A stretch of DNA of 42,038 nt from Candidatus Aenigmatarchaeota archaeon (GTDB lineage Archaea; Aenigmatarchaeota; Aenigmatarchaeia; CG10238-14; SCSR01). The position numbers and the translations under genes were made by a program. The stretch lies in the NCBI GenBank assembly GCA_039091335.1, contig JAWCME010000001.1:76024-118061 (forward strand), read 5' to 3'. The notes under the pieces are model-generated. The model did no database searches. It was not told the DNA's origin and saw nothing but the letters and a program-made list of their open reading frames with translations. Positions 7,823 through 18,400 of the stretch are shown here, in pieces (the first letter of the stretch is position 1; every line of letters starts with the position of its first letter).

Positions 7823-7859
7823 ACTACCATAGGATGGTTGTTTATCAAGGTCAGGCAAC
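7823..7859 (-). other. 3' arm of pre-23S processing stem (BHB)
   Basis: GACCU UGAU AAA CAACCAUCCUAUGGUAGU pairs with the 5' arm at 11066-11102. Confidence 0.92.
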
Positions 7860-8024
7860 CTCAGGCTTTTAGTGGCAGCCAGCTGAGTACCTCGCTCGAA
7901 AGCTTGGTACTTACACTGCTGCTCTATCAAGCTTGTAGTCTACAAGGGCCTTTGTCGCTCTTCCGCTCCTTTCGGAGCAGTTGAGCGATTGGCTGTCTAT
8001 TTTTCCGGATGGCTTCGTCCTTAG

Positions 8025-8062
8025 TTAGACAAGTATAGCACTTAGTTTAAGTGCTATACTTT
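8025..8062 (-). other. 23S BHB intron, 38 nt, ~2754/2755
   Basis: Central helix AGGC/GUCU, bulges AUA and AAC, 14-bp intron stem; removal restores GCAUCUAAG. Confidence 0.9.
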
Positions 8063-8067
8063 ATGCC

Positions 8068-8098
8068 TTCCTGCTAATGGAGTTTAAACTCCATTAGT
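8068..8098 (-). other. 23S BHB intron, 31 nt, ~2749/2750
   Basis: Central helix CCUG/CAGG, bulges AAA and AAG, 9-bp stem; removal restores CCUGAAGGCAU. Confidence 0.9.
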
Positions 8099-8229
8099 TT
8101 CAGGACTTATCCATGATGGCGTGGCTGCCCGGCTGCAATCACAGCCGGTACACTAGAGGCCACGGATGGGTGTTCCTTTCGTACTCACCCATCCTTCCGG
8201 TCAGACAGCCAGCACCTCGAGTAGATAGC

Positions 8230-8263
<34 letters not shown>

Positions 8264-8362
8264 AATGTTCCCCTTTAATCAGTGGACACCTGCACCCTTG
8301 GCTGCTACTGCACAGCCAGGAGGGGGAAAGCCGACAGCGACGCACCAACGCGCCGGGTCAAT

Positions 8363-8399
8363 TTATCTCGCTTCTGGGAATCGAAGACTCCATAAAGCT
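8363..8399 (-). other. 23S intron, 37 nt, ~2477/2478 (H89), relaxed BHB
   Basis: Removal restores GUCCACAUUGAC; central helix GUCC/AGAU has one mismatch. Confidence 0.8.
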
Positions 8400-8571
8400 G
8401 TGGACTTTCACCGGCCACGGGCCCATTATCCCCGAGGTAGCTTTTCTGATACCGCTCACTCCCATCAAGGGAAATGAACGTCTCGTTAGCCCATGCTTTC
8501 GCAGCTGGACTTCTCGCTTTGTGAAGTCCAGTCAGGCTGGCTTTTGCGCTTACACTCTACTCAGGATTTCT

Positions 8572-8657
8572 TTAGGGTGATAGAAGTTAATTCATTAGCT
8601 ACCTCACTTCTCATCTTAAATCAATCTGGAGCAGTATAATCATTCAACTTCTATCAT
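8572..8657 (-). other. 23S BHB intron, 86 nt, ~2306/2307 (H84), containing box C/D motifs
   Basis: Central helix AGGG/CCCU, 11-bp stem UGAUAGAAGUU/AACUUCUAUCA; removal restores GGGUCAGAAAUCC. Confidence 0.92.
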
Positions 8658-9662
8658 GACCCTGATGAGCCAACCTTTGGGCACCCTTGATCTCTTGTCA
8701 AGGGTGTACCGCCCCAGCCGAACTGCCCGCCAGATGCTGTCCTCTTTCGAGTTAGCGATTCGGTTGAGGAGGGGTGGTGTTACACTTTCCTCTCAGCTTT
8801 TGCCCGGAGGCTAAGCCTAATAGCGAGTACCACCTACGCTCTGCAACCGCAACCGAATCGCAACATCAAGCTGCAGTAAAGCTCTACGGGGTCTTCGTTT
8901 CCCACTCGAGGTCTCTGGCCTATTCACCAGAACAGCAATTTCGCTGGGTCCCAGCCTAGGACAGCGAGGAAGTCGTTACGCCATTGAGACGGGCCGTCAA
9001 TTAAACGGCAAGGGATTACGCTACTTTACGACGGTCAGAGTTACCGCCGCCGTTTACCGGGGCTTCTTCCTGTTGGACCAGGCTTTCACACACCGGCACT
9101 GGGCAGGCATCAGAGACTGTACACATGCTTTCGCACTTGCAGTCTCCTATGTTTTTGTTAAACAGTCGCTTCCTCCTTGTCACTGCGACCTGCTGTCCCA
9201 CCCCACTTGCCCTGCTTAGCAGGACTTGTGGTTAGAGACTACAGGCACCCCTTCTAGCTAACATACGGGGCCAATTTGCCGATTTCCCTAGGCTGGGTTC
9301 TCCCAACAGGCCATTGCCTTCTCAGCAAGCATACCTGTGTCGGTTCTCGGTACGGTCATGAAGGATCCGTTGAAGTTCTTTTTCACGGACTCCAGGAATC
9401 GGTCGAACTTCGCATACGCGAAGCTATTCCCACTTTCATCTGCTTCTCCTCTTTATGAGACTCCACAGACTTCAGTGGTTAACTTGCGTCGACCTATCCC
9501 GAAGTGTCAGAACTTCAACTTGCGTTGCCGCATGTACCTTCATGGCATGGGAATATTAACCCATCTCCCATTTGACCGGTTCGGTTAAGATCGGTCTTAG
9601 GACCGGCTAACCGCCAGTTGACGAACATTGCTGGCAAACCCTTATGCTTTAGGCCGTTGGGA

Positions 9663-9679
9663 ATTGAGGATAAATATCT
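9663..9679 (-). other. 23S BHB mini-intron, 17 nt, ~1287/1288
   Basis: Central helix UGAG/CUCA, bulges AAA and AUU, stem GAU/AUC, exon stem GUUGGG/CCCAAC; restores loop UGAGAAU. Confidence 0.88.
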
Positions 9680-11065
9680 TTCTCACCCAACTATGCTGCT
9701 ACTCATGGCAGGATCTTCATTTCCTTGCGGTCCACTTGTTCTTACGAACAAGCTTCTACCCACAAGGAACGCCTTCTTACCCTTGCTTTCGCAAGCTTGG
9801 GTATCGGTAACCAGCTTAGTCCCTTCCATTTTCAGGGCAGAAACTCTCGGCGGGTAAGCTGTTACGCACTTTTTAACTGATGGCTGCTTCTAAGCCTACA
9901 GTCCCGCTGTCTAAGAGTTTCCACTCCCTTCTTCACTTAGCTGGTATTTTGGGACCTTAACCCAAGTCCGGGTTGTTTCCCTCTCGGAGGCTGAGCTTAC
10001 CCCAACCCCCTCACTCCGGCCTTCTAAGACGCTAACAGATTCTGAGTTGGACAGGATGGCTGAGCCTTTCGGCCCTTCACCACCCAATCCGTAGCTTTAC
10101 CCTGTTAGCTGTCTCCGGCCAGGCTGTACTGAGGTACATTTCAGAAGGAACCAGCTATCACCAGTTTCGATTGGCTTTTCACCCCTAACCCAAGGTTACC
10201 CGAGTGATTGGACCTCAACATCGGTATCGGGCTTCCATTTCGCTTTCGCGAAACTTCACCCTACCTTGGGTTAGATCAACTGGCTTCTGGTCTTATCCCA
10301 GCGACTTCAGGCACTTTCATACCCAGCACCACGCTCTTAATGAGCTACGTGCTTTTCGCTTTCGCTACGGATCCGGAGCTTAAACTCCTTATCCTCGCCG
10401 CTGAGATAAACTCCCTGCCCCGTTTTTCAGAACGGATGCTAGGACACTGTAAGCTGCTCTTAGTACTATTTCCTCTCGGAAATTTCCTTCAGAGCAGCAC
10501 CTTTCATGCCCTAGCTGACTATCTCCATCTTGGTTTCAGGCTCTTTTCACCTCCCTTTCGGGATACTTTTCAGCTTTCTTTCACAATACTATTGCGCTAT
10601 CGGACTTGGTTAGTATTTAGGGTTGGATGTTGATGCCACCCAGATTCCTGCTCCATATCCAAGGAACAGTACTCAGGATGCTTGGCATTTTCCTTCTCTC
10701 CTTCCTCTACGAGGCTATCACTCTCTAAGGCGGTTCTTTCCAGAACACTTCGAGTCGGAGAGTTAGGAAAGACCCAAGTCCTACAACTCCACATCCTTTC
10801 TTTCTTTTCGAAAGAAAGTTCGGTTTGCCCTTTACCCCTTTCACTCGCCGTTACTCAGGGTATCTCAATTGATTTCTTTTCCTGCGCCTACTAAGATGCT
10901 TCACTTCGGCGCGTTCCTCTCCCTTTCGGGATAGCTCTTTAAGAGCTGGGAATCCCATTGATAGATCCTGGGGTCAATTCCTCCATGCGGATAACCCAGG
11001 CTTATCGCAACTTGGTACGTACTTCATCAGCTAACCAAGCCAAGCCATCCACCAAGTGGAGTGGT

Positions 11066-11102
11066 GTTGCCAGACCTCTTTGACCAACCATCCTATGGTA
11101 GT
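11066..11102 (-). other. 5' arm of pre-23S processing stem (BHB)
   Basis: ACUACCAUAGGAUGGUUG GUCA AAG AGGUC; 18-bp outer helix with 7823-7840. Confidence 0.92.
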
Positions 11103-11114
11103 TTCATCTTTATT

Positions 11115-11176
11115 GGTTTCATATAGACAGTTCGCTCTTCATAATTTCAGACGCTGTCAGTTAAATCATCAACCTC
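11115..11176 (-). ncRNA. Putative dual-guide box C/D sRNA in the 23S leader (predicted targets U2504, A2600)
   Basis: C UUGAUGA (11166-72), D' CUGA (11147-50), C' AUGAAGA (11136-42), D AUGA (11119-22). Guides CUGACAGCG and CGAACUGUCU are complementary to 23S 8331-8339 and 8233-8242. Confidence 0.7.
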
Positions 11177-16642: not shown

Positions 16643-16699
16643 TTTTTCTTAAGGAGGTGATCCAGCCGCACGTTCCCGTACGGCTACCTTGTGGCGACT

Positions 16700-16796
16700 T
16701 TAGGCTCTTGGAAGCTCATAATAAATCAATTCACCTCCAACTCATCATTAATCAGAGTCAAGCCATTTTCTCATATTATTTTAGAGCTTCCAAAAT
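16700..16796 (-). other. 16S BHB intron, 97 nt, between A1492 and A1493, containing a full box C/D set
   Basis: Central helix GGGC/GCCU, 12-bp stem UUUUGGAAGCUC/GAGCUUCCAAGA; removal restores GGGGCUAAGUCG. Confidence 0.92.
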
Positions 16797-16869
16797 TAGC
16801 CCCTCTCGCAAAACCCAAACTCGACTTTCCCAAAAAGAGAAAGCCTTGTTTGGGTTTCACTCGATTGGC

Positions 16870-16906
<37 letters not shown>

Positions 16907-16915
16907 GACGAACGA

Positions 16916-16959
16916 ATCCACGCAATATGAAGCATTTCCAGCCTCTTTTCATAATTGCA
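16916..16959 (-). other. 16S BHB intron, 44 nt, ~1363/1364
   Basis: Central helix UCAU/GUGG, exon helix AACG/CGUU, stem GCAA/UUGC. Confidence 0.88.
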
Positions 16960-17414
16960 TGATGACGTTCGCCTACTAGGGATTCCGGCTTCACGAGGAC
17001 GAGTTACAGCCCTCGATCTGAACTGAGCATGCTTTTAGGGGATTAGCTTCTCCTTTCGGAGTTGCATCCCATTGTGGCATGCATTGTGGGTCGCGTGTAG
17101 CCCAGGAGATTCGGGGCATACGGACCTACCGTCGCCCACACCTTCCTCCCACTTATCGCGGGCAGTCTCCCATGAGTGCACTTCCTCCGGAGAGGAAGTT
17201 AGCAACATGGGATGTGGGTCTCGCTCGTTAACCGACTTAACGGCACGCCTCACGGTACGAGCTGACGATGGCCATGCACCACCTCTCAGCTTGTCTGGTA
17301 AGCCCTTCAGACTGACCCTCATCCTGCTGTCAACCCTGGTAAGATTCCCGGCGTTGAATCCAATTAAACCGCAGCCTCCACCCCTTGTGTGCTCCCCCGC
17401 CAATTCCCTTAAGT

Positions 17415-17470
17415 TAGGTGGAAGAAGTGGTATGTTTATATTAAATTTTTAAAAAAACACCACTTCCTCT
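17415..17470 (-). other. 16S BHB intron, 56 nt, 908/909
   Basis: Central helix GGUG/CACC, exon helix AAG/CUU, 11-bp stem; restores GUGAAACUUAA. Confidence 0.92.
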
Positions 17471-17581
17471 TTCACCCTTGCGGGTATACTCCCCAGGTGG
17501 CCCGCTTAACACCTACGCTCCGGCACTGCAAGCTCCCGAGAAGCCTGCAACACCAAGCGGGCATCGTTTACGGCTAGGACT

Positions 17582-17662
17582 TTCCCGCACGAGTAGGAAA
17601 TCCTAGCTTGTTGGGTCTTAAATTTCTTCATATTTTATCAGAAGATACTCCCAACCTCGTGT
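17582..17662 (-). other. 16S BHB intron, 81 nt, 801/802, with internal D'/C' motif
   Basis: Central helix CCCG/CGGG, stem CACGAG/CUCGUG; restores CCGGUAGUCC. Confidence 0.92.
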
Positions 17663-18400
17663 ACCGGGGTATCTAATCCCGATCGCTCCCCTAGCTTTCG
17701 TCCCTCACAGTCAGACCCGTTCCAGCAAGACGCCTTCGCCACAGGTTGTCCCCTTTGGATTAAAGGATTTAACCCCTACCCAAAGAGTACATCTTGCCTC
17801 TCCCGGTCTCAAGCCCGAAAGTATCCTCAGCAAGCCCTCCAGTTTACTGGAGGATTTCACCAAGGACTTTTCAGGCCTGCTACGGACTCTTTAGACCCAA
17901 TAATCGTGACCATCACTTGGAGTGCGGGTATTACCGCGGTGGCTGGCACCCGTCTTACCCACTCCTTATTCGCCTTCCTGTTTTCAGAAGGCAAAAGCTC
18001 TTGCAGAGCAAGAGCACTCCGGGTTCCCTTATCTCGCGTTAGCGAATTGTAAAGTTTTCGCGCCTGCTGCGTTCCGTAGAACCTGGACTCATGTCTCAGA
18101 GTCCATCTCCGGGCTCCTACTTCCATAGCCCGTAGGCGTTATCGCTTTGTTGGTTCGTTACACCAACAACAGGCTGATACCATGCAGTCCCATCCTTAGC
18201 CGCAATTGCTTTTGTTGTTGGAACCTTCCAGTATCCAACAACTATGGAGTATTGAGCTCAGTTTCCCGAGTTTATCCTCCAGCTAAGGGTAGGTTGACTG
18301 CACATTACGGAGCAGTTCGCCGAGGGCTTTCCCCTCTCGACTCGCATGGCTTAGTCGAACCCGGATAGCAATGGTCTCTGGCGGGATCAACCAGAATTTT

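Follow-up and report, generated by a model that had tools for sequence, protein, structure and literature searches.

A box C/D guide RNA in a bulge-helix-bulge intron of the 16S rRNA that it is predicted to modify in a Candidatus Aenigmatarchaeota archaeon

The 16S rRNA gene in a 42,038-nucleotide (nt) stretch of a Candidatus Aenigmatarchaeota archaeon genome (positions 76,024 to 118,061 of contig JAWCME010000001.1, GenBank assembly GCA_039091335.1; the whole stretch is referred to as the window) is interrupted by a 97-nt insert that lies between the decoding adenosines A1492 and A1493 (16S positions are in Escherichia coli numbering throughout). The insert is very likely a bulge-helix-bulge (BHB) intron of the 16S rRNA with a double-guide box C/D small RNA (sRNA) as its payload, a counterpart of sR13 of Nanoarchaeum equitans. 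One guide is complementary to a segment of the same 16S rRNA upstream of the intron and the other to its anti-Shine-Dalgarno (anti-SD) end. An earlier note, made from the sequence without database searches, had proposed that a box C/D guide within the intron targets A1408 and the anti-SD end. This proposal is supported by the conservation of the core in relatives, by the sR13 counterpart and by the presence of genes for Nop5, fibrillarin and L7Ae, and the positions that the note gave for the boxes, the guides and the junction all hold base for base on the minus strand, which is the RNA strand (Table 1).

The insert between A1492 and A1493

The 16S gene is 1746 nt long and the Rfam model has 1478 positions, hence the gene contains several insertions. 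On the RNA strand, the 3' strand of helix 44 (h44) reads ...GAGAGGGGCUA, is then interrupted by 97 nt (16796..16700) and continues with AGUCGCCACAAGG. The central helix H that brings the two ends together, GGGC/GCCU, has 4/4 base pairs (bp) and is bordered by 3-nt bulges, UAA and AAA, on opposite strands, and within the intron is a 12-bp helix, h', which scored 8/8 bp in a survey of H and h' in the homologous introns. The outer exon helix h is weak (GCGA/UCGC, with an internal loop between h and H) and, as the H-B-h' part is intact, the motif in the window is a relaxed form of the BHB. When eight homologous introns were folded together using RNAalifold, the BHB structure was recovered together with seven compensatory pairs, all of them in h'.

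The sequence leaves three possible junctions within a run of A's, and it is the BHB cutting rule alone that fixes the junction between A1492 and A1493. Cutting after the second nucleotide of each bulge joins GGGGCUA to AGUCGCC, which is identical to the sequence found in intronless relatives. Removal of the intron restores GGGGCUAAGUCGCC, also present in intronless relatives, and the longer predicted spliced product, GGGGCUAAGUCGCCACAAGG, is again their sequence. The junction at A1492/A1493 in the earlier note is thus borne out by the second-nucleotide cuts and by the sequence of the intronless relatives. If the excised intron were circularised, the predicted back-splice junction would read ...GAGCCUAA followed directly by AUUUUGGAAG.... 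Promoter-like and terminator-like sites were not found in the intron region, and a coding-potential check indicated that the open reading frames of the region are mechanical frames within an rRNA gene.

A1492 and A1493 are the adenosines that read the codon-anticodon helix, and an insertion kept between them would disrupt the decoding site. The possibility that the insert is a retained expansion segment was ruled out because intronless relatives show the exact spliced sequence.

The box C/D RNA and its guides

The box C/D unit within the intron is 49 nt long, with a C-12-D'-3-C'-12-D layout (7-12-4-3-7-12-4 nt), and includes two guide spacers of exactly 12 nt and a 3-nt D'-C' linker (UUA). The internal boxes match the consensus and are highly conserved. 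Among the 16S loci the sole exception to CUGA in box D' is CCGA in one degenerate copy (L016, genome G010), and box C' deviates in two copies (AUGAAGA in L057 and GAUGACGA in L016). In box C, position 6 is A in most aligned copies and is able to pair with U1 of box D. A second family has a degenerate box D, UUAA or UAAA.

The D' guide contains UGGCUUGAC (16765-16757), a perfect 9-nt complement of 16S GUCAAGCCA (shuffled-guide p ~0.017), and the D guide contains GGAGGUGA (16738-16731), an 8-nt complement of 16S UCACCUCC. The targets are ~85 nt upstream and ~35 nt downstream of the intron. Both complementarities claimed in the earlier note, to 1405-1413 with A1408 as the N+5 position and to 1532-1539 with C1535 as the N+5 position, match base for base. 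For the counterpart, N. equitans sR13, the methylations that it directs have been measured experimentally.

Covariation of guide and target in related genomes, which the earlier note had put forward as a check, was found for the D' guide. Four genomes carry 16S GUCAAACCA, that is G1410A, with the paired change C1490U, and in 4/4 of these U replaces C at the matching guide position (GGUUUGAC or GGAUUUGAC). The 16S 3'-end target is invariant among copies, and GGAGGUGA is kept in nearly all of them, with single-base changes in three (L041, L048 and L056). In the second family, box D is decayed and the D guide pairs with the 16S 3' end over a longer stretch, of 11 bp. The minimum-free-energy (MFE) fold of the naked unspliced 3' domain contains the two guide-target duplexes in cis, which is consistent with action before splicing but no demonstration of it.

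One copy (L016, G010:C47) is a G+C-rich version of the intron at 1492/1493 in which both guides are kept, the pairing of the D guide is extended to 11 bp and the boxes are degenerate (CCGA, GAUGACGA and no clear D box).

Table 1. Features of the 16S rRNA gene, its intron and the box C/D RNA, with positions in the window
Feature	Position	Strand	Remarks
16S rRNA gene (host)	16652..18397	-	Rfam RF01959, 1308 bits, full length
97-nt BHB intron	16700..16796	-	between A1492 (16797) and A1493 (16699)
5' splice site	16796..16802	-	central helix strand GGGC 16802-16799 and bulge UAA 16798-16796; predicted cut 16797/16796
3' splice site	16699..16705	-	central helix strand GCCU 16705-16702 and bulge AAA 16701-16699; predicted cut 16700/16699
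Intron helix h', 5' strand UUUUGGAAGCUC	16784..16795	-	pairs with 16717-16706; compensatory changes across relatives
Intron helix h', 3' strand GAGCUUCCAAGA	16706..16717	-	pairs with 5' strand of h'
Box C AUGAGAA	16768..16774	-	AUGA core conserved; position 5 variable
D' guide, 12 nt AAUGGCUUGACU	16756..16767	-	16765-16757 pair with 16S 1405-1413; conserved in all copies
Box D' CUGA, consensus	16752..16755	-	invariant in alignment A2 (including N. equitans sR13)
Box C' AUGAUGA, consensus	16742..16748	-	UGAUGA invariant in alignment A2
D guide, 12 nt GUUGGAGGUGAA	16730..16741	-	16738-16731 pair with 16S 3' end, 1532-1539
Box D UUGA, non-consensus first base	16726..16729	-	UUGA in nearly all copies of the family
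Target 1, 16S GUCAAGCCA	16866..16874	-	1405-1413; N+5 = A1408 at 16871 (predicted 2'-O-methylation site)
Target 2, 16S UCACCUCC	16653..16660	-	1532-1539, anti-SD; N+5 = C1535 at 16657 (predicted site)

Conservation and chance

A 249-nt query covering the 3'-end region of the 16S gene found this region in 53/70 genomes of the same family. Some of these relatives have the whole intron, some are intronless, and many match the 49-nt core from box C to box D at other positions. BLAST searches with the core located it in 47 fetched loci, and it is conserved in ~45 related Aenigmatarchaeota genomes at 87-100% identity while the remainder of each intron diverges. Across these ~45 genomes boxes D' and C' are near-invariant and both guides are kept; the earlier note had named boxes and guides that are not conserved in homologous introns as grounds for abandoning its proposal. 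A strict pattern (D' guide, D', C' and D guide) matched 44/118 genomes of the order, from three families, and 0/253 genomes in the remainder of the class, and a reversed-pattern control gave 0 matches. When a similar pattern was run over one genome per GTDB species, 49 loci were found, confined to Candidatus Aenigmatarchaeota metagenome-assembled genomes, N. equitans, where the match is sR13, and a single contig labelled Hadarchaeum. This distribution assigns the window to a DPANN archaeon of the Aenigmatarchaeota. That contig (L108, NZ_JBMFOX010000069.1), binned as Candidatus Hadarchaeum, is a low-coverage contig of 3.1 kb with the cassette near the 16S 3' end, and is probably a mis-binned Aenigmatarchaeota contig.

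It was also considered whether the boxes and complementarities might have arisen by chance in an AT-rich selfish intron, or whether the insert might be a retained expansion segment, and we regard both as extremely improbable. UGA motifs are common in a genome of 33% G+C, and a very relaxed pattern of four UGAs is equally frequent in the genome (14 loci) and in shuffles (12-16) and hence not enriched, so that the architecture is informative only as a whole. When a moderately relaxed regular expression for C-12-D'-x-C'-12-D was used, however, it matched once in the 569,737-bp genome, at the intron, and never in five shuffled genomes. Rfam families at the gathering threshold matched only rRNAs and tRNAs and left the intron unmatched, which could also be taken to favour chance. 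In E-value mode the intron matched archaeal C/D families below threshold via its boxes (sR2, 19.3 bits; snoPyro_CD, 13.7 bits), and the intron RNA is therefore outside every curated family. Against chance are the conservation across three families of a core whose flanking intron sequence is not conserved, the covariation of guide with target and the experimentally validated counterpart in N. equitans, and against an expansion segment are the intronless relatives with exactly the predicted spliced sequence and the disruption of the decoding site that a retained insert would cause. Both possibilities are already contradicted by the comparative data.

Host sites and relocation of the cassette

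The core was always found within a BHB intron, at five different hosts. Four of these are sites in 16S rRNA, namely 1492/1493 in the 3' strand of h44 (10 copies including that in the window; central helix GGGC/GCCU), 1499/1500 (11 copies; GUCG/CGAU), 1513/1514 in the 5' strand of h45 (20 copies; GCCG/CGGU) and 1520/1521 (one copy; GGGA/UCCU). The fifth is the 37/38 intron of tRNA-Ser(UGA), with 10 copies in genomes with an intronless 16S 3' end. At each 16S site type, the local exon and the 3' end of the intron match and form a central helix of 4 bp, H being 4/4 bp in 37/42 of the sRNA-bearing 16S introns, and the second-nucleotide cutting rule yields the intronless sequence at all four 16S site types. 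Copies in relatives that appeared to be stand-alone are in fact within tRNA-Ser(UGA) introns and not intergenic, and two tRNAs called as tRNA-Thr by ARAGORN were, on inspection of the sequence, the same tRNA-Ser. The guide in the tRNA-Ser copies has no target in its host tRNA.

Site types vary inside single genera, with the 1499, 1513 and 1520 types in genus g16, the 1513 type and tRNA-Ser in genus g3, and the 1492 and 1513 types in genus g17, and the cassette has therefore relocated repeatedly. The intron of the sRNA's own 16S target is one of several interchangeable BHB hosts.

Further introns are found in the same region of some relatives. One 16S gene (L044, G017:C1) has at 1499/1500 a 619-nt intron encoding a double-motif LAGLIDADG homing endonuclease (PF14528, E 8e-12) and an sR13-like cassette in a second intron, at 1513/1514. 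In another (L012), a 46-nt intron without an sRNA at 1499/1500 is beside a cassette intron at 1513/1514, and in two more (L011 and L018) a 33-nt intron without an sRNA near 1503 is beside a cassette intron at 1492/1493. The tRNA-Ser(UGA) gene of the window genome (C1:86-185, outside the window) has an intron of ~14 nt at the canonical site, with no sRNA, according to ARAGORN.

The variety of host sites bears on a reading that we think possible, though with a less than even chance of being correct, in which the intron is a mere processing vehicle, the sRNA being excised and circularised from any BHB intron to act only in trans thereafter and its position in 16S, devoid of functional meaning, reflecting intron mobility. 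The five host sites, which include tRNA-Ser and differ within genera (g16 and g3), fit this reading, as do the LAGLIDADG homing-endonuclease intron at 1499/1500 in one relative and a guide in the pre-tRNA-Trp intron that is reported to act in trans (PMC7994747). Set against it, a 30-nt stretch of 16S located between the two targets of the sRNA accounts for 42 of the ~52 copies, although tRNA and 23S intron sites abound in these genomes. Such clustering suggests either that proximity has been selected for or that targeting is biased. The vehicle reading differs from the explanation that we prefer, an intron with a guide RNA payload for its own 16S host, only in whether the position matters.

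Protein machinery

The window genome (G000) encodes L7Ae (C20:425-700) and has Nop5 (C28:5766-6293) and fibrillarin (C28:6648-7307) side by side. Fibrillarin is present in 68/70 genomes of the family. RtcB was found at C25:37091-37729, where the match, in a 299-aa open frame, covers profile positions 1-209 of 426 only, the N-terminal half, and the gene may be split, interrupted or truncated.

A genuine RsmA/KsgA/Dim1 (PF00398) was found neither in the window genome nor in 25 relatives, and 14/14 control genomes gave a match. A weak RsmA-like match in the window genome (C28:3650-3856) was rejected, as it is a tRNA methyltransferase of the GCD14/TrmI type. To our knowledge, the RsmA/Dim1 checkpoint is otherwise universal.

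Points that weigh against the proposed reading

Several observations count against a functional guide RNA released from a 16S intron in this organism. First, the terminal pair of boxes, AUGAGAA/UUGA, departs from the expected RUGAUGA/CUGA and the window copy does not have a good terminal stem adjoining boxes C and D. Both GA dinucleotides required for the tandem sheared pairs are present in boxes C and D, and A at position 6 of box C and U at position 1 of box D could pair in place of the usual G-C in a putative kink-turn. Second, the D guide match is of 8 bp only and would by itself have a shuffled-guide p of ~0.07. The degenerate D box together with the longer pairing in the second family further suggests, as far as sequence comparison goes, that it may be pairing, and not methylation, that is maintained at the 3' end. 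Third, the splicing endonuclease EndA (catalytic domain PF01974) was not found in the 87%-complete assembly that includes the window. It is present in 25/25 relatives tested, and the EndA gene of the window genome is probably on unassembled sequence. Fourth, scans of the metagenome contigs for the exact exon-exon junction and for a degenerate junction of the circular intron found no match. Finally, the likeness to N. equitans sR13 could be due to convergence as well as to common descent, because nearly every position is constrained either by the boxes or by the universal targets.

Proposed mechanism

Splicing, circularity, protein binding and methylation in the organism of the window are inferred here from sequence. 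The pre-16S transcript would supply the sRNA, making a separate promoter unnecessary, and residence in the 16S intron would yield a single guide for each 16S transcript, located between the two segments that it targets. Assembly of L7Ae, Nop5 and fibrillarin would take place at both motifs, C'/D' and the non-consensus C/D. The D' guide would then pair with 1405-1413 and direct 2'-O-methylation of A1408, and the D guide would pair with 1532-1539 and direct methylation at C1535, or at least hold the 3' end. After the guides have acted, the splicing endonuclease would cut both bulges and RtcB would join the exons, closing the base of h44 and restoring A1492-A1493, and the intron would probably be circularised. 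Action in trans would be sufficient, given the tRNA-Ser introns that house the sRNA in relatives and its free gene in N. equitans.

An alternative emphasis, which we find doubtful as the main role, is that the sRNA serves chiefly in assembly, as a chaperone or checkpoint, with methylation in second place. When still within the pre-16S, the sRNA would pair in cis with 1405-1413, on the 5' side of the h44 base, and with the anti-SD end, and would so block the decoding site and the 3' end until splicing, in replacement of the late RsmA/Dim1 checkpoint. This is in keeping with the contrast between the window genome and its 25 relatives, with no genuine RsmA/Dim1, and the controls, all 14 of which match, and the same idea was proposed for sR13 in N. 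equitans, which is also RsmA-less (PMC5389701). Each of the four 16S insertion sites falls between the targets, the sites flank the loop that is the substrate of RsmA, the D box of the second family decays while its 3'-end pairing reaches 11 bp, and both cis duplexes are contained in the MFE fold of the unspliced domain. However, the copies in tRNA-Ser introns and the free gene in N. equitans indicate that a tether in cis is not required, boxes D' and C' and the spacers of exactly 12 nt show the conservation that catalysis would demand, and methylation has been measured at both target regions in N. equitans. The chaperone and methylation roles are, moreover, compatible with each other.

A further and unlikely proposal, offered as speculation, is that the guide in the 16S intron times assembly in cis, in place of the lost RsmA/Dim1 checkpoint. 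Before splicing, it would hold the anti-SD end and the h44 base on its 5' strand, and methylation and then splicing would release both in order, with A1492/A1493 and the decoding site forming last. The repeated relocation to four sites, each between the two targets, would then be due to selection or to guide-directed targeting for such a position.

Introns in archaeal rRNA are usually regarded as selfish or neutral, and the C/D sRNAs of archaea as genes on their own or as passengers of tRNA introns. In the window, an rRNA intron that splits the decoding adenosines has what looks like a functional guide aimed at the rRNA that hosts it. In this natural example, modification of the rRNA, folding of its decoding centre and splicing of the intron may be linked within a single transcript. 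The Aenigmatarchaeota also represent an independent second lineage for the proposed role of sR13 as a substitute for RsmA/Dim1, and comparison across the natural relocation series (four 16S sites, the tRNA-Ser intron and the free gene in N. equitans) could indicate whether placement in cis matters and in what way BHB introns relocate. As the introns interrupt universal 16S primer sites (the 1492R region), this lineage will be under-detected in amplicon surveys.

Other features of the rRNA genes

The 23S rRNA is at 7849-11076 of the window (Rfam). A second C/D-like unit (ATGATTT-12-CTGA-AATT-ATGAAGA-13-ATGA) is at 11119-11169 on the minus strand, in the 23S 5' leader; it ranked second in the relaxed genome scan, and its D guide is a 10-nt perfect complement to 23S (8242-8233; shuffled-guide p ~0.007). 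A third (ATGATTA-12-TTGA-TTTAAG-ATGAGAA-12-ATGA), at 8592-8643 on the minus strand, is within a 23S intron and has a D guide with a 9-nt complement to 23S (8442-8434; p ~0.04). Thus, rRNA transcripts contain all three of the top-ranking C/D candidates of the genome.

Two other unusual features of the 16S rRNA were noted. At 16693-16694 (minus strand) it has GUCGCCACAAGG (C1498, C1499) where nearly all organisms have GUCGUAACAAGG; positions 1498-1499 are CC or UC in relatives, and are AC in N. equitans according to an oligonucleotide sequence (PMC5389701). The loop of helix 43, at ~16915-16962 (minus strand), contains an insertion of 46 nt where the Rfam model expects 2 nt, and this insertion includes a hairpin, GCAAUuAUGAA...UUCAUAUUGC.

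Comparison with known systems

The closest known RNA is N. equitans sR13, GATGATGTAGGTGGCTTGACTCTGATTAGTGATGAGAGGAGGTGATACTGATAG (Dennis et al. 2015, PMC4644070 supplement). Its D' guide, paired with 16S 1405-1415, directs Am1408, next to which is Am1409, and its D guide, paired with 1531-1540, directs Am1534 (Seistrup et al. 2017, PMC5389701). All three methylations were measured using MALDI mass spectrometry and RiboMeth-seq (PMC5389701). N. equitans is without RsmA/Dim1, and the authors proposed that sR13 modulates the folding of helices 44 and 45 in place of the checkpoint (PMC5389701). The two RNAs are identical in the part of the guide proximal to box D' (UGGCUUGACU), in box D' (CUGA), in the UUA linker and in the GGAGGUGA part of the D guide (alignment A2). 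Both combine, in one sRNA, a D' guide to the 1405-1415 region and a D guide to the 1531-1540 region, and both are from organisms in which RsmA/Dim1 was not detected. They differ in that sR13 has an intergenic gene of its own and its terminal boxes are consensus-like (AUGAUGU/CUGA), whereas the window RNA is within a BHB intron of the rRNA that it targets and its terminal boxes are AUGAGAA/UUGA. In addition, the spacing from GGAGGUGA to the UGA of box D is one nt shorter in the window RNA, and the predicted site for the D guide is therefore C1535 instead of A1534. On sequence grounds, the window RNA is the Aenigmatarchaeota counterpart of sR13.

The guide in the pre-tRNA-Trp intron of Haloferax and Pyrococcus (sR50; Clouet d'Orval 2001 and Singh 2004, as cited in PMC7994747) is also a box C/D guide in a BHB intron, and it directs the 2'-O-methylation of its host RNA. 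According to that source, sR50 is released and circularised by the tRNA splicing machinery and is reported to act in trans. Its host is a tRNA and its targets, C34 and U39, adjoin the intron, whereas the host in the window is 16S rRNA and the targets are distant. In addition, the cassette type of the window occupies four rRNA sites or a tRNA-Ser intron.

Like the 16S and 23S introns of crenarchaea, for example Thermoproteales, the intron described here is BHB-flanked, is in a conserved region of rRNA and varies between close relatives, and some of the crenarchaeal introns carry LAGLIDADG homing endonucleases (Jay and Inskeep 2015, PMC4496867). However, the catalogued crenarchaeal 16S intron loci range from 374 to 1391, with none at 1492-1521, and their payloads are homing-endonuclease genes, remnants or small hairpins and no guide RNAs (PMC4496867).

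In eukaryotes, the relevant system is the intron-encoded box C/D snoRNAs, where the guide is also expressed by excision from an intron of a host gene and the hosts are often tied to ribosome production. There, however, the hosts are spliceosomal introns of mRNA or non-coding genes, maturation is by exonucleases and the host transcript is not the target.

The contexts listed for archaeal C/D RNAs in a 2021 review are tRNA introns, tRNA-adjacent positions and intergenic genes, with no rRNA introns (PMC7994747). In the open-access literature, no report of a C/D sRNA within an rRNA intron was found, though one could be missed, nor any published example in which an rRNA intron acts as a guide for the rRNA that hosts it, nor a report of relocation of a guide among four 16S sites and a tRNA intron. 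The view of the earlier note that no rRNA intron guiding its own host has been described therefore agrees with this literature, but the pair of guide and target was already published as sR13. Hence, the guide, its two targets and the link to RsmA loss are known from N. equitans, guides in tRNA-Trp introns and BHB introns in crenarchaeal rRNA are also known, and what is new is that the guide resides in an intron of the rRNA that it targets and has moved from site to site.

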